64,000 nucleotides of DNA, taken from Alphaproteobacteria bacterium. GTDB taxonomy: Bacteria > Pseudomonadota > Alphaproteobacteria > JAAXGF01. Location of the stretch: NCBI GenBank assembly GCA_963555825.3, contig CAUVXB020000002.1, positions 1,344,001 to 1,408,000 on the forward strand, read 5' to 3'. A program made the position numbers and the translations under genes. Position 1 is the stretch's first letter. Every line of letters starts with the position of its first letter. Under the pieces are notes generated by a model, which was not told the DNA's origin, did not search any database, and saw only the letters and a program-made list of their open reading frames with translations. Shown one piece after another: positions 26,361 to 61,319 of this stretch.

Positions 26361-27275
26361 TCACGCCCCTGCGTGAGTCCGCCGATATGTCAGGCGCTTG
26401 CCGGTGATACCGCGTAGCGCCTCTGTGGCGCGTTCGGCGTCCATCACGTCGCGCGTGTTGTAGCGGAAGTCGAACTCGCCGAGATAGCGCTTGAGGTGCT
26501 TCTGGCTGACGTGCTGGTACACGCCATTGATGCCGCGCTTCATGATCTAAAAATAGTTCTCGACGGTGTTGGTGTGCCAGAACTTGCCGCGCACATACTC
26601 GTTAATCGAGTGATTGACGTGACCGTGGCCCGCGAACTCGCGCCCGACCTTGATGTACTGGCCGGCTTCATCCGTCATCAGGTATGACTTGCGGTCGATC
26701 TGGGTAACGAGGATGGGGCGTAGCGTCTTGGCGTTGACGCCAGGGACGTGGAACGAATGAACGCGACCCTCGCGCTCGACCAGTGCGAACACGGCCTCTT
26801 TCTTGGGCGGGGGTCCATAGGCGCTGTTCCTGGCCTTGCCGCCGACGAACGTCTCATCGGCCTCGACAACCTTGTTCTCGCCACCGACAGGGCCGGACAG
26901 GTCGGGGTTGTCGCGCATGGCTTCACGAATGCGATGCGCCATGAACCACGCGGTCTTGTACGTGACGCCCAGCATCCTATGAAGCTGGTGCGCCGACATG
27001 CCTTTCTTGCTCGCACAGATCAGGTGATTGGCGAGCAGCCACTTATGAAGCGGAACCTTGGAACGCTCGAACAACGTGCCGACAGTCACGGTGAACTGCT
27101 TGCGGCAGTCGGCGCAGAACCACAGACCGGGACGTGCCGACTTGCCCTTGATGCGATGCGCGTTATCAATGACGCCGCAGTGCGGGCAGATCGGGCCGTC
27201 AGGCCAGCGAATAGCCTCTAGATGCTTGCGAGCGGCGTTGACGTCGTTGAAGCGTTTGGCGGTTATGTCGTACAT
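26361..27275 (-). pseudogene. IS1595-family transposase with in-frame TAG (ENYF*IMKRG)
   Basis: CPHC/CADC zinc ribbon; EADETFVGG; TDE; NTVEN; YLGEFDFRYN. Confidence 0.9.
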
Positions 27276-27296
27276 GGCGCATCTCCTTGCTATCTA

Positions 27297-27338
27297 TAAG
27301 GTAATGCGTCCTGTGCGTTTGTCAAGTATATAGTCGCC
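27297..27338 (-). promoter_or_regulatory. IS1595 left end with a sigma70-like promoter
   Basis: Minus strand GGCGACTATATAC-TTGACA-16 nt-TACCTT, then AGGAG RBS before the transposase. Confidence 0.55.
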
Positions 27339-28421
27339 CTTGGTAGGGCGCGACAGGTTGGTGACGATGAAACCGACACGGGGAACCAGGTCGCCGGGGT
27401 GCCACTCCACTTTGGCCACGACACGGCGCTTCTTGTTCCACGATCCGGCCTGATAGCTGAAGCTGGCGTGGAAACGGCGAACATGGTCGGGCGGGCGACC
27501 GACAGGTCGCGTAAGCAGATGGGCAATGTTCCGCTGGAGAATCACGTTCGCTTTGAGGCGGATGACGTAGAGTAATCCCTCAGCTTCGAGATATTCGTAT
27601 ATCTCCGGTGAGGCGAAGGCGGCATCGCCACGAAAATACAGCCGCAGCTTCCTTTCCTTATAGCGCATCACCACCGGCTCCAGAACATTCCGCCACCGTC
27701 GGCACTGTGAACATTACCGGGGCGCAGGGAACATCTCTCCAAGTCGCCGAACTGGTTGAACACGAACAGCGGATGATAGCAGGAACACCCGAAGTGCCCG
27801 TTGTAGGCCGTGCCCTCCTGATCGCCATGGGTCGGGCTGACGGAGCTATCCATGTCGAGAATGATCATATTCGGCGGATGGCGGTCATGAACCTTGTCGA
27901 TCCACACCCCGTTCATGTCGGCCAAGGCTTCAACGTTCTCGTCGGTGGCCAATAGCTCCGTCTCGAAGCGTCCCATCTGGCTGGTGGAAGCGGCCTGTCT
28001 TTCGATGGCCTTGCCGCCGACAATCCAGCGCATGGCGGGATCACGACCCAGACGATCGGCATCGTTCACATCGTCATAGCCGCCAAGACGGCCAAAGACG
28101 GACTGAAGGAACTGCTCCGTTATGCCGTGCCATCCGTTCTTGCCGGTACGGCTGTCGTGGAAAACACCCTCGGCCATCTCAGTCAGGCCGAGGGCATCGT
28201 CAAGCTCCCGGTAGGCGAGCAACCCGGCATCAGAGGTGATCTTGGAACCGTGGAATTCAAGCTTCAAGCGACGGTCAAAAACGACCCGAAGGCACCCCTG
28301 TTTCGATTCACCCATCGGGTGTGCCATATCCGCCGCTCCATGCATGCTACAACTTCATGATTCTTATAGCAGAATAGCCTTCTCGCCGCACTGAATATCG
28401 ACGCTACTTGGGAAATGCGGG
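27339..28421 (-). mobile_element. Truncated, frameshifted IS1380-family element interrupted by IS1595
   Basis: TSDAGLL, LDMDSS, RGDAAF motifs; frameshift near 27695; end CCCGCATTTCCC; 3' part missing. Confidence 0.85.
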
Positions 28422-28475
28422 ATGAAGATGTTACCGAGTTCTCAATGCCTCGAAAGTCCGCTTCGGGTCCAGACT

Positions 28476-29088
28476 GTTCTCTAACTCGGGGGTTGGTTGT
28501 CAAGCTCTCCGTGACGTACCTGCCGGGTTCACTGTTCTCTCCGCGGTAGGGGCTCGGCCCTCCGCATGATGGCGTTGGAGGACGTTGGCGGATCAATGTG
28601 TGAAGCGCGCTTGCCTCGGTGAGGCATCGCAAAGCCTGGATCGATCTCGCCGACGCCGCCGTCCCGACAGGGACATCGGTTCTCTAACTCGGGGGTTGGT
28701 TGTCAAGCTCTCCGTGACGTACCTGCCGGGTTCACTGTTCTCTCCGCGGTAGGGGCTCGGCCCTCCGCATGATGGCGTTGGAGGACGTTGGCGGATCAAT
28801 GTGTGAAGCGCGCTTGCCTCGGTGAGGCATCGCAAAGCCTGGATCGATCTCGCCGACGCCGCCGTCCCGACAGGGACATCGGTTCTCTAACTCGGGGGTT
28901 GGTTGTCAAGCTCTCCGTGACGTACCTGCCGGGTTCACTGTTCTCTCCGCGGTAGGGGCTCGGCCCTCCGCATGATGGCGTTGGAGGACGTTGGCGGATC
29001 AATGTGTGAAGCGCGCTTGCCTCGGTGAGGCATCGCAAAGCCTGGATCGATCTCGCCGACGCCGCCGTCCCGACAGGGACATCGGTTC
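28476..29088. repeat. Three tandem 203-bp direct repeats
   Basis: Units start at 28476, 28679, 28882; GTTC microhomology at 29085. Confidence 0.97.
28905..29085 (-). ncRNA. Putative bridge/seekRNA (also in the other two repeat units); boundaries approximate
   Basis: Two hairpin-split loops whose flanks match target (TGTGTGAA, AGCCTGG) and donor (TGTTCTCT, ATGGCG). Confidence 0.7.
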
Positions 29089-29119
29089 CGCTCTCGCGGA
29101 ATGCTTGGACGTTGTTTCC

Positions 29120-30151
29120 CTATGCGGCCGCCTCCTTGGTTGACCAGATGAAGTCCGTTCCATCACGCCACATGCGATGGAGGATGACCGCCAGCTTCCG
29201 TGCCACGGCGATCTTGGCCTTCTTGAAGCCGATGCGTTTCCACAACCTGTGACCCCAGGCCTTGAGCGCGCACCATCGCGGCACCCGGGTGAGCAGCACG
29301 CCGGCCGCCTCGAAGAGGTAGGTCCTGAGCATTCGATCGCCGCATTTGGAGATCCGCCCCGTCCAATCGACCTCGCCGGAAGCATGGCGGCGCGGCGTCA
29401 GCCCGATGTACGCGCCGACACTCCGGGAACGTCGGAAGCGGCTCGGCTCGTCGATCGCCGAGTGGAAGGCCAAGGCGGTGATCGGCCCGATGCCTGGAAC
29501 CGTCATGGAACGTCTGCTGTCCTCGTCGTTCCGCGCCAGGCCCAGCAGCTTGCGATAGAGCGCGGCGATCTCTCGGCCGACCTTCTCGCGGACTTCCAGA
29601 AGGGGCCGAACGGCCTCCGACAAAAGACCCTGCCCGCCAAGCAGCTCTTCGACCCGGCGACGGAAGACATTGCCGCCCGCCTTGCCGATGACGAGGCCGA
29701 GGTTCTTGAGCAAGCCACGGATCTGGTTCTCGAGATCACGCTTGATCTTGACCAACTGGGCCCGGCTGTTCAGGACGGCCCGTATCTCGTGGCACGCCAC
29801 GCTCTTGACTTGGACCTCCTTGTACCAACCGCACTGCATGATCCGCGCGATCCCGGCGGCATCGTTCCGGTCGCTCTTGTTGATCTGCATCGACAGCGCC
29901 GCCTTGGCATGACGCGCATCGATGCAGATCACCGGCAAGCCGAGCGCCCTGAGCTCATGCCACAGCCAGGTCGTCGTCGGACCGGTCTCCAGACCGATGC
30001 GCTTTGCGTGCGGCGCCGTTGTCCTGATATACGCCGCGATTGCCGCCGGCTCCGAGATCACCACGCCCTCGGACACGATCTCGCCGTTGTCATCGACCAC
30101 GCAGATCGAGGTCTCCTTGAGCGATACATCCATTCCAACATACAGTTCCAT
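29120..30151 (-). CDS. IS110-family DEDD recombinase/transposase
   Basis: VGMDVS, GLE, KSDRNDA, PGIG, GLTP...ASG, ISKCGD, VARKL. Confidence 0.95.
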   Translation of the reverse strand: MELYVGMDVSLKETSICVVDDNGEIVSEGVVISEPAAIAAYIRTTAPHAKRIGLETGPTTTWLWHELRALGLPVICIDARHAKAALSMQINKSDRNDAAGIARIMQCGWYKEVQVKSVACHEIRAVLNSRAQLVKIKRDLENQIRGLLKNLGLVIGKAGGNVFRRRVEELLGGQGLLSEAVRPLLEVREKVGREIAALYRKLLGLARNDEDSRRSMTVPGIGPITALAFHSAIDEPSRFRRSRSVGAYIGLTPRRHASGEVDWTGRISKCGDRMLRTYLFEAAGVLLTRVPRWCALKAWGHRLWKRIGFKKAKIAVARKLAVILHRMWRDGTDFIWSTKEAAA

Positions 30152-30652
30152 AGCTGCTCTCCTGCTCTTTCAGTGTGCTCGCCCGGCCCATGCCGGTCGT
30201 TGCTACATTAAGGAGAGCAGTGCCCGATCCCCGAGTTACGCCATGTGTGAAAACGCCGGCGAATGCTACTAGCGAGGGAGTGTTCAGCATAATGTTCTAA
30301 ATCACCCTATTATAAGATGTTGATTTTGTTGAACTTGAAAATTCGAGAATCCAGAGAAAATCACGCCAAGAGCGCTCGGGAGCAGTTTTCACACAGCCTG
30401 GGTCAACAGCAGACCTCGGCGGCGTCATCACGCGGTGTCCGCTTTCGAGCGGTAAGCCGACGTCGAACGCCTTGTCCCGCGATCCAGCGTCTTTAAGGTC
30501 TGCTAACGAGCGGGAAGCGGACGCCGACGATCAGCCTCTCGTATGTCTGCTCATAGCCATCACCAGACATGCGGCATGCAGAGCGAGTTTGATTCGCGGG
30601 CCGGAACGGATATTCTGAGGCGCGGAACCAGTGGTCTTGCGGGGAACGTCCG

Positions 30653-31810
30653 ATGAAGACGTTCGTGCTTCCCGATCTCGGTGAGGGTCTGCACGAGGCG
30701 GAGATCGTCGCGTGGCACGTCAGCGCGGGCGACAGCGTCGTCGAGGACGACGTGATCGTCTCCGTCGAGACGGACAAGGCCGTGACCGAGGTGCCCGCCC
30801 CGTGGTCGGGGACGATCGCGCGGCTGTGCGCGGAGGTGGGCGACGTCATCAAGGTGGGCGACGCGATCGTCGCATACGCCGGCGACGACGACGACGATGG
30901 GGCCGTGCCGGAAGCGCGCCCGTCCGATGCGCGCTGGACGGTCGCCGGCGCCGGGACGCGCGTCGCCGCGCCGCAGCCGGGCGCGGGCGTCGCTGTCATG
31001 CCCGCCGTGCGGCTTCTTGCGGCAGAGTTCGACGTCGCGCTTGACGGTGTGACCGGCACCGGGCCCGACGGCGCGATCCTGGCGCGCGACGTCGCGCAAG
31101 CGGCCAAGACGCGCGCGACCCACGACACCGTTGCCGCCGGCGCCGAGCCGGGTGCCCCCGAGACGGTCGAGGAAGCGGCCGACTGGGAGCCACTGAGCGG
31201 GCCGCGCCGGACGATGGCGCGCAACATGGCGCGGGCGCATGCCGAGGTGGTTCCCGCCACGGTCCACGAGGAGGCGGACATCGGCGCGTGGGCTTCGGAC
31301 GAGGACGTGACGGTGAGGTTGGTCCGCGCGCTGTTGGCCGGCGTCGCCGCGGAACCGGCGCTCAATTGCTGGTTCGACGCGCAAAGAGGCCGCCTGGTGC
31401 ACGAGACGGTGGACGTCGGCATCGCGGTTGACACGCCGGCCGGCCTTTTTGTGCCGCCGCTTCGGGGCACCCAGGGCCTTGCCCCGAGCGCGCTGCGCGG
31501 CGAGCTGGACCGCCTCGTGTCGGGTGCGCGGAACCGTTCGCTTTCGGCGGGCGAGCTCAAGGGTGCGACGATCACGCTCAGCAACTATGGCGCCATTGCC
31601 GGGCTTCACGCGACGCCGGTCGTGATGCCGCCCCAGGTCGCGATCCTCGGCGCCGGCCGATCGCGCGCGCAGGTGATTGCCGGCGACGACGGGCCCGTCG
31701 TCGGCCGCGTGCTGCCACTATCGCTCAGCTACGACCATCGTGCCGTGACGGGCGGCGAGGCGGCCCGGTTCATCCGCGCCGTCGTCGCGGATCTGACAAT
31801 GGCGGACTAG
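30653..31810 (+). CDS. 2-oxoacid dehydrogenase E2 (dihydrolipoamide acyltransferase)
   Basis: Lipoyl ETDKA; GTGPDG; TLSNYG; YDHR. Confidence 0.9.
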   Translation: MKTFVLPDLGEGLHEAEIVAWHVSAGDSVVEDDVIVSVETDKAVTEVPAPWSGTIARLCAEVGDVIKVGDAIVAYAGDDDDDGAVPEARPSDARWTVAGAGTRVAAPQPGAGVAVMPAVRLLAAEFDVALDGVTGTGPDGAILARDVAQAAKTRATHDTVAAGAEPGAPETVEEAADWEPLSGPRRTMARNMARAHAEVVPATVHEEADIGAWASDEDVTVRLVRALLAGVAAEPALNCWFDAQRGRLVHETVDVGIAVDTPAGLFVPPLRGTQGLAPSALRGELDRLVSGARNRSLSAGELKGATITLSNYGAIAGLHATPVVMPPQVAILGAGRSRAQVIAGDDGPVVGRVLPLSLSYDHRAVTGGEAARFIRAVVADLTMAD

Positions 31811-34690: not shown

Positions 34691-34825
34691 AGGCCCGGCC
34701 GATCGCCGTCACAGGCCGTCACATCACGCCGAAATCTCGAGTCATTCAAATTCCAACCCCGGTCGGGCAGGCAAGACTAACTCGCAATCGTCCAATGCAG
34801 CCCGCCGCGACTTCGGCTCGGGGTC

Positions 34826-36337
34826 CAGACTGTGTAAGAACGTTTGCTGCGTGATCTGTACGGCGCGTCTTTGGCTTCGATGATCCGTCGCGGCGGGTAT
34901 TCCGGGATTAAGGATTTTCGCCACTCGTGCGGACCTGTCGGCCGGCTGGCGCCGGTGTGAGCTGCGATTTGGCCGGATATGGGCGCAATTTGCGGCGCAG
35001 AGAGGCCTATGCGGTCCTCATCGCCGCGATCAGCGGGTCGATGCCCGTGATGTTCATGACGCGCTTGAGATTGTAGGCCAGCACGTGCAGGGCCATCTCG
35101 GTCCTCACCCGTTTCAGCGTCTTCGTCTGGAAATGCGTCGCGCCCATCCAGGACTTGATGGTGCCGAAGGGATGCTCGGCCGTCTCGCGCCGCCGACGCA
35201 TCGCCTCCGGGTGCTCGTCGAGCCGCCTCTCGACGGCCTCGAGAACATGCTCGTGCTGCCAGCGGGTGATGCGGCGCTGCTTGGCCGTGGTGCAGCGATG
35301 CTTGATGGCGCATCCCTGACAGGCGTTGGTCCAGTAGCGCCGCATGCTCAGCCCCCTCTCCTGGCTGGTGAAGCGGTAGACCAAACGCTCGCCGGCCGGG
35401 CAGCGATAGACATCGTCGGCGGCCAGATAGACGAAGTCCTGTTTGCCGAAGCGGCCCTTGGCCTTGGCTCCAGAGGTCAGCGGCTTAGGCAATGTGACGG
35501 TGATGCCGGCCTCATCGCAGGCCAGAATCTCCTTGCCGTTGTAGTAGCCGCGATCGGCAACGACATCCAACTCGTCGGTCTCCAGAGCCGCCTTGGTCCG
35601 CTTCGCCATGGCTGAGAGCTGGGCGCGGTCGGTGCCCTGATTGGTCACCTCGTGGGCGACGATCAGGTGGTGCTTGGTGTCGACGGCGGCCTGAACGTTG
35701 TAGCCGACCACGCCGGAACCCCGGCCGCTCGTCGCCATCGAGCGGGCATCGGGATCGCTCAGAGAGATCTGCTGGTCCGGGCTCGCACGCCGCTCGACTT
35801 CAAGCGCCTTCAGGCGCCGCATCTCCTCCTTGAGGATCGCGATCTTGTCGGCCAGACGAGTCGTCTTGGTCGTGCGCGCCAGCGACGGCTCTTGCCGGTC
35901 GGCGCTGTCCAACTGGTCCAGATAGCGCGCAACGCTCTCCTCGATCTGCGCCACCCGCCGCGCCATCTTGGCCCGCGTGAAGTTCCTGTCCCGGCTGTTG
36001 ACCGCCTTGAACTTCGAGCCATCGATCGCCACGCTCGCCTCGGCGAACAGCCCGAGTTGCCGGCACAGCGCGACGAACCGGGCGCAGACCTTGCGGATCG
36101 CACGGCCGTTGTCCTTGCGGAAGTCGGCGATCGTCTTGTGATCCGGCGCCAGCCGGCCGACCAGCCACATCACTTCCACATTGCGCCCGGCCTCCCTCTC
36201 GAGCCGACGGCTCGACTGAACCCGGTTGAGATAGCCGTAGATGTAGAGCTTCAACAAATCGCAAGGATGATAGGCCGGCCTGCCGGTCGCCAGCGGCTCG
36301 ACCCGGTCGAACCCGAGGCCGCCAAGATCGAGCTCAT
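34826..36337 (-). mobile_element. IS1182-family element; 5' end removed by IS21 (transposase 35007-36337)
   Basis: IDGSK, DPDAR, GYNVQ, ADRGYY, EHPFGTIK; end CAGACTGTGTAAGAAC. Confidence 0.9.
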
Positions 36338-38907
36338 TGTCAATGGCGGAGCAAAAAGGGACCACCTCGGCGGTGTAAGAAGGGACCGCTTGGCGGCTGC
36401 GGGCTTGTCCCCGTAGTCCACGGGAGGGCCCCGCGCGCGACGCGGCGTGCCCTCAACAGGCTGACGCGGCGGCGCGCGCGGGAGGGACCTGTGGGCCCAC
36501 GGGGTCAAGCGTGGGCTGGGTGGTCGGTTCAGTTAGCAGTCGGGGTTTGACGCCTGCGGCTCTGGTTGAGCCTGTAGCTGTCACCGTTCATCTCGAGGAT
36601 GTTGACGTGGTGGGTGAGGCGATCGAGGAGCGCGCCGGTGAGGCGCTCGGAGCCGAACACCTCGGTCCATTCGTCGAAGGGCAGATTGGTGGTGACCAGG
36701 GTCGAGCCCCGCTCGTAGCGTTGGCTGAACACCTCGAACAACAGCTCGGCGCCGGTCTTCGACAGCGGCACGAAGCCGAGTTCGTCGACGATCAGAAGCT
36801 TGTAGGTGGCGAGCTTCTTCTGGAACCTCAGCAGCTGCTTGTCATCGCGGGCCTCGATGAGTTCGTGGACCAGCGCGGCGGCGGTGATGAAGCCGACCGA
36901 GAGGCCCTTCTGGCAGGCCGCCAGGCCGAGACCGAGGGCGATGTGGGTCTTGCCGGTCCCACTGTTGCCGAGCGCGATGAGGTTCTCGCGGCGCTCGATG
37001 TACTCGCAGCGGGCCAGCTCCAGGACCAGCGCCTTGTTGAGCGAGGGGATGACCTTGAAGTCGAAGCTGTCGAGGCTCTTGACCACGGGGAAGCGCGCCG
37101 CCTTGATGCGCCGCTCGACCATGCGGCGCTCGCGGTCGATCAGCTCGAGCTCGGCGAGTCTCAACAGGTAGCGGACGTGATCGACGCCTTCCGAGGCGCA
37201 CTGCCGGGCGATCTTGTCGTACTCGCGCAGGAAGGTCGGCAGCTTCAGCGTCTTGAGGTGGTGGGCGAGCAGCACTTGCGGTGTGTCGGTCATGCGCCGA
37301 GCCCCGACAGCAGGCTCATGTACGACTTGGCGGACGTCATCGCGACCCGGGCGCGCGGCAGATACGGATAGACGTCGAGGTTGAGCCTGGGCGGCCGCCG
37401 CTCGATGCGGCACAGTACCAGGTGCTTCACCGCATCAAAGCCGATTGCGCCGAGCCGCAGGGCGTCGCCGACCGCACCCTCGACCTCCTCGAGCCGGAAG
37501 GTCTCCAGTAGACGGAGCACCTGGACGTACTCGCGCTTGCCTGCCTTGCCCATACGAGCTTCGAGGAGCCGCCGCAGAGTGATGAAGGCCTCGGGCAGGT
37601 CCCAGCCCGCCAATGGCGCGGCCTGGTCGAGGGCGCCGATCTTCTGCTCGATCAAGGGCAGGTAATGCAGCGGGTCGAAGATCAGGTCCTCGCTGTCGTA
37701 GGACCGGCGGTGCCGGGCGATCACCTCGGCCCCGCAGCTGATCACCACCTCATCGACGTAGCCCCGGATGAGCACCTCACGGTGGCCGTAGGCCACGGGC
37801 ACGGAATAGTCGTTGCTGCGGTAACGCACCAGCGACAGCGAACTCGCCCGTCCAGGGCGCTTATCGCAGGCATCATAGGGAGCAGGCGGCAATGGCAAGA
37901 GAACTTGACGATCCCGCTCGAGACGCTCGCCGATGGTCTCCTTGTGGCCCCGCAGCCGCGCCGCCTGGCGCCGGCGGCACTGTTCGGCGAGAGCATCGTT
38001 GAGGGCCGCGAAGCTCTCGGCACGCGGGACGGGGACCAGGAAGTTCCGCCGGATGAAGCCGACCAGTCCCTCGACCTTGCCCTTGTCGTTGCCCTTGCCC
38101 GGCCGGCCGAACCTGTCCTCGAACAGATAGTGGGACTGAAGCTCCGTGAAGACGCGCGTTCGCTGCCGCTTCCCATCGCCCAGGATCCGGGCAACCGCCA
38201 GCTTGGTGTTGTCGTACAGGATGGATCGGGGGACGCCGCCGAAGAAGGCAAACGCCGCGTTGTGGCCATCGCAGAATGCTTCGGTCGTCTCCGCCGGATA
38301 GGCCGCAACAAAGCAACCATCACTGTGGGGAAGGTCGAAGGCAAGGAAGTGGATCTTCCGTAACGCGCCGCCGATCACCGCCATCGCTTCGCCGAAGTCC
38401 GCCTGGGCGTGACCGGGGGAATGGGAGAGTGGCACGAACACCTCACGCGACCGAAGCCCCTGCTCACGAACGTAGTCCTTCACGATGGTGTAGCCGCCCG
38501 TGAAACCGTACTCGTCCCGGAGGCGGTCGAAGATGCGCTTCGCAGTGTGCCGTTGCTTGCGGTGGCTGGTCCGATCGTCTTCCAAGATCCGATCGATGAT
38601 TCCCGTGAACGGACCCAGCTTTGGCCGCCTCGGCGGCGCGCTTCGGCGATACCCTGGCGGCACCGAGAACGACAGCATCTTACGGACCGTCTTGCGGTCT
38701 ACACCAAACACCCGCGAGGCCTCGCGGGTGCTCATCCCCTCGACATGACACGCCCGCCGAACCCGTGCGTACAACTCCACCCGATACATCCCCCCCGCCT
38801 TCCAGTCAGAGCAACCCTGACAGAAGGCTATACGCGGTCCCATTTTGGTCCGCCGCAGCCGGATCGACCGGCCGCTTCAGTGGGGGATTATTGCTCTGCC
38901 GTTCTCA
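36338..38907 (-). mobile_element. IS21-family element, copy 2 (istA 37290-38789, istB 36529-37293)
   Basis: Reverse complement of 19084-21653; identical ORF translations. Confidence 0.95.
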
Positions 38908-58802: not shown

Positions 58803-59073
58803 CATGTGTGGACGGCTCCCTGTTGGCAAGAGATTTTGTGACGTTGATGCAAGCTGGTCGGGTGCTGCCATGTGTGGACGGCTCCCTGTTGGCAAGAGAT
58901 TTTGTGACGTTGATGCAAGCTGGTCGGGTGCTGCCATGTGTGGACGGCTCCCTGTTGGCAAGAGATTTTGTGACGTTGATGCAAGCTGGTCGGGTGCTGC
59001 CATGTGTGGACGGCTCCCTGTTGGCAAGAGATTTTGTGACGTTGATGCAAGCTGGTCGGGTGCTGCCATGTGT
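58803..59073. repeat. Four tandem 66-bp repeats of the IS110 end
   Basis: Units start at 58803, 58869, 58935, 59001; CATGTGT microhomology at 59067. Confidence 0.97.
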
Positions 59074-60744
59074 CCGGCCTTTTGGTGCGGCGTACATGGC
59101 CGCTGGCCCTAATGCGATCCGCGGGGTCGGGTCCCAGTCATAAGCACGCGCTCGAGGCGCCGTGGCTATAGCGGGTTTTCCCGATCCTCGGTTCGACCGA
59201 TTTTGCATTACGTCACTTACACTCCGCCAAACTCGTGAACGCCTTGTTTTCGTCGGCCTAGGCCGTCGCGGGCCTGCGATAGGTTCCGCCATGTCTCAGA
59301 AGCGCCCAGGCAATGCGGGCGTTCTTGTTGGCCAGCGCCACGGCCGCGACCTTGGTCGGCTTGTCGGCGATGATGTTGGCAAGCCATGGATCGGTCGTGC
59401 CGCGTCGCTTGGCGTGGCGGATGACCGTCATGGCGCCGGCGACCAGCAGCCAGCGCAGGTATTGATCGCCCTGCTTGGAGATCCGCCCCATGCGCTCCTT
59501 GCCACCGGTCGAGTTCTGTCTTGGCACCAGCCCGATCCAAGCGGCCATTGAGCGGCCCGATTTGAAGATCGACGGATTGGCAATCGAAGATGCCAGCGCG
59601 CTCGCCGTGATCGGTCCGATGCCGGGTGTGGTTTCGAGACGCAGGCTCTCTTCGTTCGTCCGGTGCCAGGCGTGGATACGCCTCTCAGCGCCGACGATCT
59701 CCCGCTCCAGCGACAGCAACTGCCGCGCCAGCCCTTCCAGGCAAGTCCGCGCCAGGGGCGGAATGCGCTCATCCGCCTCATCGCTGATCACCGCGAGCAG
59801 CTCCTTGACCTGCGGCAACCCGGTTCGCGCCACCACCCCGAACTCCGCCATGTGCGCCCGCGTAGCGTTGACCATGTGTGGACGGCTCCCTGTTGGCAAG
59901 AGATTTTGTGACGTTGATGCAAGCTGGTCGGGTGCTGCCATGTGTCCGGCCTTTTGGTGCGGCGTACATGGCCGCTGGCCCTAATGCGATCCGCGGGGTC
60001 GGGTCCCAGTCATAAGCACGCGCTCGAGGCGCCGTGGCTATAGCGGGTTTTCCCGATCCTCGGTTCGACCGATTTTGCATTACGTCACTTACACTCCGCC
60101 AAACTCGTGAACGCCTTGTTTTCGTCGGCCTAGGCCGTCGCGGGCCTGCGATAGGTTCCGCCATGTCTCAGAAGCGCCCAGGCAATGCGGGCGTTCTTGT
60201 TGGCCAGCGCCACGGCCGCGACCTTGGTCGGCTTGTCGGCGATGATGTTGGCAAGCCATGGATCGGTCGTGCCGCGTCGCTTGGCGTGGCGGATGACCGT
60301 CATGGCGCCGGCGACCAGCAGCCAGCGCAGGTATTGATCGCCCTGCTTGGAGATCCGCCCCATGCGCTCCTTGCCACCGGTCGAGTTCTGTCTTGGCACC
60401 AGCCCGATCCAAGCGGCCATTGAGCGGCCCGATTTGAAGATCGACGGATTGGCAATCGAAGATGCCAGCGCGCTCGCCGTGATCGGTCCGATGCCGGGTG
60501 TGGTTTCGAGACGCAGGCTCTCTTCGTTCGTCCGGTGCCAGGCGTGGATACGCCTCTCAGCGCCGACGATCTCCCGCTCCAGCGACAGCAACTGCCGCGC
60601 CAGCCCTTCCAGGCAAGTCCGCGCCAGGGGCGGAATGCGCTCATCCGCCTCATCGCTGATCACCGCGAGCAGCTCCTTGACCTGCGGCAACCCGGTTCGC
60701 GCCACCACCCCGAACTCCGCCATGTGCGCCCGCGTAGCGTTGAC
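59001..60744. repeat. 872-bp tandem duplication (IS110 non-coding end plus 3' part of the transposase)
   Basis: 59001-59872 equals 59873-60744; duplicated ORF translations. Confidence 0.95.
59900..60070 (-). ncRNA. Putative bridge/seekRNA (second copy near 59030-59200); boundaries approximate
   Basis: Loops carrying CATGTGT/ATGCG (donor-like) and CATAAGCA/TGGCT (target-like). Confidence 0.55.
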
Positions 60745-61152
60745 CAGCATGGTTCTCTGGCGGACCAGAAGCTCGCGCGTTCGGTGCAGCATCAGAACGC
60801 TCTGCTGCTCGACGCTCTTCACCGCGACAAAGCGCATCGTCGGGCGCGTGACGGCCTCGCAAATAGCCTCCGCATCGGCAGCGTCATTCTTGTTCCGCTT
60901 CACGTAGGGCTTCACATAGCGCGGCGGCATCAGCTTGACCTCATGCCCAAGCGCCGCGATCTCCCGCGCCCAGTAATGCGCGGTCGCACATGCCTCCATA
61001 CCAACCAGGCAGGGCGGCTGTTTCTCGAAGAAGGCCAGCACCTGACGCCGCCTCAACTGACGGCGGACGACCACGGTTCCCTCGGCGTCAACGCCATGCA
61101 CCTGAAATACGTTCTTCGCAAGATCAACACCGATCGTGATAACTTCGTTCAT
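60130..61152 (-). CDS. IS110-family DEDD recombinase/transposase
   Basis: GVDLAK, MEAC, KNDAADA, GLVPRQNSTGG, ANKNAR. Confidence 0.95.
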   Translation of the reverse strand: MNEVITIGVDLAKNVFQVHGVDAEGTVVVRRQLRRRQVLAFFEKQPPCLVGMEACATAHYWAREIAALGHEVKLMPPRYVKPYVKRNKNDAADAEAICEAVTRPTMRFVAVKSVEQQSVLMLHRTRELLVRQRTMLVNATRAHMAEFGVVARTGLPQVKELLAVISDEADERIPPLARTCLEGLARQLLSLEREIVGAERRIHAWHRTNEESLRLETTPGIGPITASALASSIANPSIFKSGRSMAAWIGLVPRQNSTGGKERMGRISKQGDQYLRWLLVAGAMTVIRHAKRRGTTDPWLANIIADKPTKVAAVALANKNARIAWALLRHGGTYRRPATA

Positions 61153-61319
61153 GGACGGCTCCTATTTCCCTGTGGTTCATCGAAACCACCATTTTGGCAC
61201 CTAGATGCCTGCGGGTGGGAGCCGTCCACCGCATCATGAGCAGACATTCCGAGGATTCCCTCCGCGCATAGATTCTTCCACTGCGACTCGCTAATCTCGC
61301 TGGCAAGGGAGGACGTCAC

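Follow-up and report, generated by a model that had tools for sequence, protein, structure and literature searches.

An IS1111-group insertion sequence, probably placed by a guide RNA, in the terminal inverted repeat of an IS1182-type miniature element

The stretch of DNA analysed here (the window) comprises 64,000 nucleotides (nt) of an Alphaproteobacteria bacterium (assembly GCA_963555825.3, contig CAUVXB020000002.1, positions 1,344,001 to 1,408,000), in a genome of 6.04 Mb and two contigs (C1 and C2) in which copies were counted. Its positions 28456-30414 hold three nested layers: a palindrome resembling those of the repetitive extragenic palindromic (REP) type, GTCCGC...GCAGAC, contains a 162-bp miniature inverted-repeat transposable element (MITE), and the MITE contains an insertion sequence (IS) of the IS1111 group, inserted 8 bp inside its left terminal inverted repeat (TIR). 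We give a probability of roughly 0.88 to the reading that this IS was placed in the TIR of an IS1182-type MITE by RNA-guided, site-specific recombination through its DEDD recombinase. Four observations bear on it: the anatomy of the locus, the site specificity, the covariation of guides with flanks, and the IS1182 identity of the host element. They also uphold the proposal, made earlier from the letters alone (the sequence-only reading), of a natural RNA-guided recombinase programmed against IS1182 ends. The features are as follows.

28456-28469, no strand: left arm of the palindrome (GTCCGC...) with the 4-bp GGTC duplication of the MITE, recognised from the flank logo and from the duplications around IS1182 copies and empty MITEs
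28470-28477, plus strand: outer 8 bp of the left TIR of the MITE, CAGACTGT, whose last two bases, GT, are the proposed crossover core
28478-30246, minus strand: IS1111-group insertion sequence, 1769 bp (1361-1363 bp in single-unit copies)
28478-28680, minus strand: unit 3 of the seekRNA/right-end array, the outermost, with the true right end and the subterminal repeat TAACTCGGGG at 28482-28491
28681-28883, minus strand: unit 2, identical to units 1 and 3
28884-29086, minus strand: unit 1, adjoining the transposase gene; the repeat boundary is the internal ...GGAAC|C site
28597-28604, minus strand: putative 3' guide of the target loop, RNA UUCACACA (left target half plus core), recurring at 28800-28807 and 29003-29010
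28633-28639, minus strand: putative 5' guide of the target loop, RNA CCAGGCU, complementary to the right target half AGCCTGG, recurring at 28836-28842 and 29039-29045
28533-28540, minus strand: putative 3' guide of the donor loop, RNA AGAGAACA (right end plus core), recurring at 28736-28743 and 28939-28946
28569-28574, minus strand: putative 5' guide of the donor loop, RNA CGCCAU, complementary to the start of the left end, ATGGCG, recurring at 28772-28777 and 28975-28980
29086-29101, minus strand: hairpin UUCCGC-GAGA-GCGGAA just past the transposase stop codon and outside the repeated unit, with compensatory variants in relatives (judged by eye)
29120-30151, minus strand: transposase, 343 amino acids (aa), with a DEDD/RuvC-like N-terminal domain, Transposase_20 and GLTPRRHASG
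30152-30246, minus strand: left end, 95 bp; it includes the subterminal repeat CCCCGAGTTA (30229-30238) and, at 30245-30246, the core copy GT
30247-30400, plus strand: remainder of the MITE, with the right TIR GTTTTCACACAGCCTG at 30385-30400
30401-30414, no strand: second copy of GGTC and right arm of the palindrome, AACAGCAGAC

TGT is present at 28475-28477 and again at 30244-30246, and excision of 28478-30246 gives back CAGAC-TGT-GTGAAAAC, which is the inverted partner, at 15 of 16 positions, of the sequence at 30385-30400. The TIRs of the MITE thereby read CAGACTGTGTGAAAAC and GTTTTCACACAGCCTG, with the GGTC duplication at 28466-28469 and 30401-30404. On the plus strand the guide segments appear as TGTGTGAA (28597-28604) and AGCCTGG (28633-28639), with the arms of a TGCCTC/GAGGCA hairpin at 28612-28617 and 28621-28626, and as TGTTCTCT (28533-28540) and ATGGCG (28569-28574). 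On recheck, all the strings and coordinates of the sequence-only reading for 28456-30414 were correct.

The element at 28478-30246 belongs to the IS1111 group of the IS110 family, the family that had been proposed for it from the letters alone. Its transposase matches PF01548 with 60.9 bits (cut-off 29, E 1.7e-16) and PF02371 with 80 bits (cut-off 21.3, E 1.8e-22), and its 343 aa and GL-P----SG motif (GLTPRRHASG) fit the IS1111 criterion, which for these transposases gives 330-350 aa and GL-P----S(t)G (Siddiquee et al. 2024; PMC11187229). In single-unit copies the non-coding region measures 236 nt 3' of the transposase gene as against 95 nt 5' of it, an IS1111 trait, and 10-bp subterminal inverted repeats, TAACTCGGGG and CCCCGAGTTA, lie 4-5 nt in from each tip and are conserved in relatives; Durrant et al. 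(2024; PMC11208160) give a length of 7-17 bp for such repeats as an IS1111 criterion.

In the genome the element has six full copies, all in CAGGCTGT|GTAAAAAC-type sites and with an identical TIR position and orientation (CCAGGCTGT|element|GTAAAAAC), and all with one target sequence and a duplication limited to the shared core; the site of the window copy reads CCAGACTGT...GTGAAAAC. The transposase gene is intact in three of the six, two others share a 2-nt deletion, and the last has a 34-nt insertion. The host MITE, of about 162 bp and without a transposase gene, is matched 11 times in the genome. A 1686-bp element with around 30 copies has the same TIRs; what the MITE shares with it is limited to 17-18 nt at each end, and the 1686-bp elements encode a protein about 70% identical to an NF033551-positive IS1182 transposase. 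A 4-bp duplication, GGTC or GACC, flanks both full IS1182 copies and empty MITEs, in the same palindrome, GTCYGC...GCRGAC; the outward flanks of 84 TIR sites show its conservation (GTCYGC stands at -13..-8 in the logo). A published table gives inverted repeats of 16/16 and direct repeats of 4 for ISPse1, of the IS1182 family (PMC3281130). The assignment of the MITE to the IS1182 type, another claim of the sequence-only reading, is borne out by the TIR, the 4-bp duplication and the palindromic site that it has in common with the approximately 30 full-length IS1182 copies. One such full-length copy lies in the window itself, at 34825-36510 (starting at C2:1378825), with the TIR CCAGACTGTGTAAGAAC and an open reading frame (ORF) at 35109-36347 on the minus strand (DUF772 and DDE_Tnp_1).

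Under the proposed mechanism, the region 3' of the transposase gene would be read on the transposase strand into a seekRNA, or bridge RNA, with two internal loops. On the minus strand a conserved hairpin comes first, followed by a stem around the target loop and then by a second, donor module. The target loop has CCAGGCU on its 5' side, an apical hairpin, and UUCACACA on its 3' side; the donor module has CGCCAU, a hairpin and AGAGAACA. The right target half reads AGCCTGG on its top strand, to which CCAGGCU is complementary; UUCACACA has the top-strand sequence of the left target half followed by ACA, hence a pairing with the bottom strand, so that in the mechanism CCAGGCU would pair with the top strand of the right half, and UUCACACA with the bottom strand of the left half and the core. 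The donor module repeats this geometry: CGCCAU is complementary to ATGGCG in the left end, AGAGAACA is identical to the right end with ACA added, and in one relative (L040) a C to T change in the donor guide is compensated by a G to A change in the left end. The claim that the two loops match the target halves and the circle junction, and are the target and donor guides, holds; the guide strings first listed were right in position and wrong in strand, the RNA being read on the minus (transposase) strand, so that the guides are the reverse complements of those strings. We infer that an RNA from the 3' region is made and bound by the transposase, and that the circle is the donor.

The evidence that these segments act as guides comes chiefly from relatives. 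One genome per species was scanned and the best 80 of 229 relatives (69-90% aa identity), mostly from metagenome-assembled genomes of Alphaproteobacteria and from Bradyrhizobium, were kept; both ends could be placed by motif in 67 foreign loci and in the six own copies, giving 73 rows, of which 58 non-redundant ones entered the covariation test (the misaligned locus L106 was kept and lowers the means slightly). Stems, donor guides and ends are conserved across the relatives, and both target guides vary along with the flanks, as in the following loci.

5' guide CCGAGGCU, 3' guide UCUUCAACA, site TCTTCA-ACA-GCCTCGG
5' guide CCGAUUUU, 3' guide UUGCAACA, site TTGCA-ACA-AAATCGG
5' guide CAGAUUUU, 3' guide UUGCAACA, site ...AAATCTG
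5' guide UCGAUGCU, 3' guide UUUCGACA, site TTTCG-ACA-GCATCGA
5' guide UCUUGGCU, 3' guide UUCACACA, site ...GCCAAGA

Over the 58 rows the mean agreement of the 5' guide is 6.43 of 9 positions with its own flank and 4.60 with other flanks, the corresponding values for the 3' guide being 7.79 and 6.16, and in a test blind to kinship none of 10,000 permutations reached the observed match of either guide. The sequence-only reading had looked to the insertion sites of homologs for its own test, and these covary with the guide segments. On the tree of the coding part, 26 and 17 changes of guide state were counted, and kin-independent pairs mostly point in the same direction (4/4 for one trait, for example). 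The closest relative, L028, with 88% nt identity in the gene, differs in its guides, and its flank differs correspondingly; a decayed solo right end with L028-like guides is found in the genome of the window, at a GGCCGAGGCTGT site. No near-identical copy of the element was found among 40 other genomes, in which the best matches are partial (64-91%).

In the foreign loci as well, the body of a host element lies upstream of each insertion. A partner TIR stands 144-224 nt upstream in 18 of the 67, which makes those 18 hosts MITEs, and in all seven loci tested, chosen for the absence of a nearby partner TIR, the upstream ORF encodes an IS1182-family transposase (NF033551, 288.9-443.1 bits, cut-off 270). 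With such hosts in the relatives, the whole clade lives in IS1182-family ends and follows their TIR variants. A full-text literature search, with ISfinder and the supplements of papers outside its scope, returned no paper describing the targeting of IS1182 TIRs by this clade; relatives of the clade may already be covered by the target logos that supplement Siddiquee et al. (2024; PMC11187229).

Occupancy within the genome is consistent with a role of the 5' guide. We compared the six occupied sites with 84 unoccupied ones lying within 3 mismatches of the target: G at base 5 of the TIR, the base read by the 5' guide, occurs in 5 of the 6 and in 16 of the 84 (Fisher p = 0.0023), and the A at the window's site leaves a G-T wobble with the guide. 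The window's site is in turn the sole occupied site perfect to the 3' guide. None of the approximately 30 full-length IS1182 copies is occupied by the IS1111 element; their base 5 is mostly C or A, which may be the reason why only MITEs are hit. At copy C (C1:1664415-1664825) a single MITE is occupied in both of its TIRs, the second of which holds a remnant of 74% identity. Two solo right-end/seekRNA remnants, at C2:2842357-2842537 (181 nt) and C2:840560-840643 (84 nt), 88-90% identical, come from a sister element with different target guides, and their sites, of the GCCGAGGC TIR type, fit those guides.

The exchange would take place in a core of 2 nt, AC in transposase orientation and GT on the plus strand. 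The left junction reads ACA in all 73 rows, under a search pattern that expected ACA with one change allowed, and the right junction reads ACC or ACG in 7 of the 67 foreign rows. In three of those seven (L060, L093 and L105) the flank beyond the right junction is still target-like, and in L105 the last guide base, C, stands opposite a flank G. At the right junction the third base of the core thus comes from the target and at the left junction from the element, a split that points to a shared core of AC. The TGT that the sequence-only reading took for a 3-nt core is present, but its width is probably overstated: judging from the few variant right junctions, the exchanged core is most likely the dinucleotide GT (plus strand), the remaining base being one that pairs with the guide.

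Overlooked in the sequence-only reading was the make-up of the RNA-coding end: three 203-bp units in a perfect tandem array (28476-29088, 100% matches in Tandem Repeats Finder), which is why each guide segment recurs at +203 and +406. Duplications that start exactly at the right end occur in four of the six copies, with lengths of 23, 122, 203 (twice, in the window) and 630 nt, and one of 142 nt occurs in the foreign locus L074; extra right-end motifs in L055, L060 and L100 were rejected as chance matches. All five internal junction sites, four here and the one in L074, hold AC (ACA, ACA, ACC, ACG, ACG), a dinucleotide found at 4.8% of positions in the element (frequency 0.048). The 122-nt junction comes directly after TTCAC-ACA, the DNA that encodes the 3' target guide, and this DNA mimics the left junction of an inserted element; at the remaining internal sites the match to the guides is poor.

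A second IS1111-type element of the same genome behaves alike. It measures about 1365 bp and encodes a transposase of 340 aa (window 60130-61152, minus strand) with 32% aa identity to the first; its copy in the window lies at 59872-61236, with the subterminal repeats GTGGACGGCTCCC and GGGAGCCGTCCAC. Its loci are window 58803-61236 (C2:1402803-1405236), C1:169591-171415, C1:2233726-2235911 and C2:2096591-2099650, and they show 16 right-end junctions at six internal sites, with units of 75-876 nt (in the window one of 876 nt and three of about 75 nt, downstream of the gene), all holding TG, with the element's own end reading ...CACACA-TG. The flanks of this second element suggest that it lands in the IS1182/MITE palindrome (...ATGTCTGCTCA|TG...), sometimes directly beside the tip of a MITE (C2:1506302 and C2:2409231).

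An endpoint anchored at the terminus, together with a dinucleotide specific to the family, points to an origin by the recombinase rather than by slippage or the assembler, and from the junction sequences the 3 x 203-bp array is most probably a side product of the element's own recombinase, which would have joined the right end to an internal core-dinucleotide site. More specifically, and at somewhat less than even odds, the right-end duplications of both families may be scars of one-ended or alternative-end IS1111 reactions, in which the right-end junction was joined to nearby core-dinucleotide sites, including the guide-encoding DNA, yielding a multi-copy seekRNA array. Three routes could lead there and cannot be told apart: the right junction of one sister copy might exchange with an internal core site of the other; a circle might insert in an internal pseudo-target (nested insertion), with homologous deletion afterwards; or minicircles might form from an alternative left end, as in ISPpu9. 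The alternative is that the array and the other right-end duplications are assembly artefacts, or products of slippage or unequal crossing-over at microhomology. The contigs of four sequencing runs report no unit-to-unit junction; bins 28732-28875 have no contig cover, a gap of no weight either way, as the pieces there fit several places. A right-end-anchored duplication is found in only 1 of the 67 foreign loci, the junction microhomologies are short (2-4 nt), and plain unequal crossing-over could take two units to three. The assembly also holds 95 tandem-repeat rows with a period of at least 60, with one internal duplication that is not end-anchored, and residual doubt on the assembly comes from its other perfect long arrays, such as the 1181-bp unit repeated four times. 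Neither slippage nor an assembler, however, has a reason to respect the terminus of an IS and its core, and the four duplications here, the one in L074 and the 16 junctions of the second family all start at the right end and share the core dinucleotide of their family (AC or TG); we therefore regard this alternative as unlikely, without calling it negligible.

The 1181-bp unit forms perfect head-to-tail arrays of 2-4 copies at C1:235249-239976, C1:1422086-1425632, C2:2331984-2336710 and C1:621700-624065, and encodes a 373-aa protein that, from a reading of its N terminus, we take to be IS630-like. Further perfect arrays have periods of 1414, 1421, 910 and 277 bp, and one IS of 980 bp, whose copies number on the order of 100, is found repeatedly at intervals of about 1178 bp.

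The right end carries a further conserved feature. A TTGACA hexamer lies about 20 nt from it in 55 of 58 aligned relatives (window 28500-28512, alignment columns 201-206, the first three invariant), adjoined by a GGAGAGC block whose inverted-repeat partner, GCTCTCC, is in the left end. TTGACA may be the -35 half of a junction promoter, and in the array it faces the next seekRNA unit; a promoter scan of 28300-30500 gave 0 sigma-70-like sites. One X1 contig joins 28512 to 30214 at a depth of 7 as against about 400, and was rejected as a likely chimera at the shared GGAGAGC/GCTCTCC blocks.

The strand of the RNA admits a second alternative, in which the guide would come from the plus strand, antisense to the transposase, with a geometry like that of IS621 (core at the 5' end of both guides, donor loop first). 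The guide strings as first listed do lie on the plus strand, they formally fit an IS621-like pairing in our own derivation, and the plus-strand fold is stable in absolute terms (-99.5 kcal/mol); yet it is no better than its shuffles (z = -0.27, 73/200 as good), whereas the minus-strand fold of the non-coding region has z = -2.88 (0/200). The consensus structure has 85.5% of cells paired, as against 36-48% with the partners slid, and compensatory change in 11 pairs, as against 4-9. The conserved helices hold many G-U pairs, possible on the minus strand only, which on the plus strand become C-A. IS1111 seekRNAs map downstream of the transposase gene, with the top-strand match 5' of the bottom-strand match, the reverse of IS110 types (Siddiquee et al. 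2024; PMC11187229), and the guide order of our element is the one so reported; a plus-strand guide is accordingly very unlikely. Least probable of all is a direct recognition of the TIR or palindrome by the recombinase protein, with an incidental complementarity of the non-coding region, for which the palindromic, structured DNA of the targets and the short (6-9 nt), imperfect guide matches might speak, since the guides change with the flanks across relatives whose protein stays 69-90% identical, and the RNA dependence of the family was shown by experiment (PMC11187229).

Several points weigh against placement by a guide RNA. Kinship, which the permutation test ignores, inflates that test, and the kin-corrected tests, underpowered with 3-6 independent pairs per trait, gave a best p of 0.125, none being below 0.05. 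The right TIR of the MITE at 30385-30400 (minus-strand reading CCAGGCTGTGTGAAAAC) is perfect to both target guides and is empty, as are ten perfect CCAGGCTGTGTAAAAAC sites in the genome. The 3' guide has one C-A mismatch in five of the six copies, and 1-3 mismatches occur in several relatives. Part of CGCC is hidden in an invariant helix of the predicted fold, which makes the shape drawn for the donor loop provisional, and when both strands of 28300-30500 were searched against Rfam, no model matched at E <= 1. Among the contigs of the four runs, a form of data that drops rare forms, neither a circle junction was reported nor were RNA ends or strand-specific expression seen; contigs of an RNA library cover the non-coding region and part of the gene, do not show strand and ends, and may reflect DNA carry-over.

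RNA-guided IS1111 elements are a kind already known from papers of 2024. Our element is like the seekRNA elements ISEc11, ISPa11 and ISKpn4 (Siddiquee et al. 2024; PMC11187229) in its DEDD transposase of 330-350 aa with GL-P----S/TG, in its long 3' non-coding region and subterminal inverted repeats, in two RNA segments that match opposite target strands in the IS1111 order, and in natural retargeting between close relatives via guide changes; unlike them, it targets the TIR of IS1182-family elements and MITEs, and its RNA-coding end is triplicated. Bridge RNAs with target and donor loops have been predicted in IS1111 right ends (Durrant et al. 2024; PMC11208160), and ISEc21, of the IS110 type, targets an IS3 transposase gene (PMC11187229). 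Like IS4321 and IS5075, our element inserts at one position and in one orientation within an inverted repeat of a different element, whose end it splits, but its host is of the IS1182 family and has a TIR of 16-17 bp. Tn21-type transposons have a TIR of 38 bp, and IS4321 and IS5075, of the IS1111 family, reportedly target the TIRs of Tn21-family transposons, in work by Partridge and Hall in 2003.

The array can be compared with ISPpu9/MITEPpu9, an IS110-family element that likewise has a tandem right-side module (Pares-Guillen et al. 2025; PMC12288879). The ISPpu9 recombinase uses alternative combinations of ends, with crossover always at the core dinucleotide AG, and there are tandem ssr9 copies, modular circles and a MITE-like module with both end boxes, Ssr9 being unneeded for transposition (PMC12288879). 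The unit here differs in consisting of the guide RNA gene and the true right end, bounded on its other side by assorted core-only internal sites. Junctions of the same type, right end/core/new right flank, arise in the 'direct transfer' of an LD-RT junction to a new right target (nRT) without a circle, shown in vitro and in E. coli for IS110-type elements with proper targets (Sun et al. 2025, preprint; 10.1101/2025.10.25.684509), whereas the duplications here are read from genomic scars of IS1111-type elements at poorly matched internal sites.

IS110/IS1111 recombinases are under development as programmable tools for DNA insertion, and the guide rules of IS1111 rest on a handful of tested elements. 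The clade offers about 58 natural guide/target pairs on one scaffold, besides 6 occupied and 84 unoccupied look-alike sites in one genome, and this series amounts to a table of specificity, covering the mismatches and wobbles tolerated and the width of the core. As a lineage the clade also makes its home in another transposon family, that of IS1182 and its MITEs, and tracks the end variants of that family. The right-end duplications, if real, would be natural off-target behaviour, with one end joined to core-only sites, which bears on the mechanism and on the safety of engineered versions; they would also form a genomic record bearing on the debate between copy-out and direct transfer. If true, the seekRNA array might increase the dose of guide and provide the frameshifted copies with RNA in trans.

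An IS1595-family transposase gene (window 26547-27275, minus strand) adjoins a split IS1380-family gene (DDE_Tnp_1_4), also on the minus strand, in two frames at 27294-27674 and 27668-28345, and in several runs the contigs stop near 28421-28426, probably where this multi-copy IS1380-family element ends. On the other side, the first gene past the palindrome (30653-31810, plus strand) begins, by eye from its translation, like a lipoyl domain, which suggests the E2 component of a 2-oxo acid dehydrogenase.

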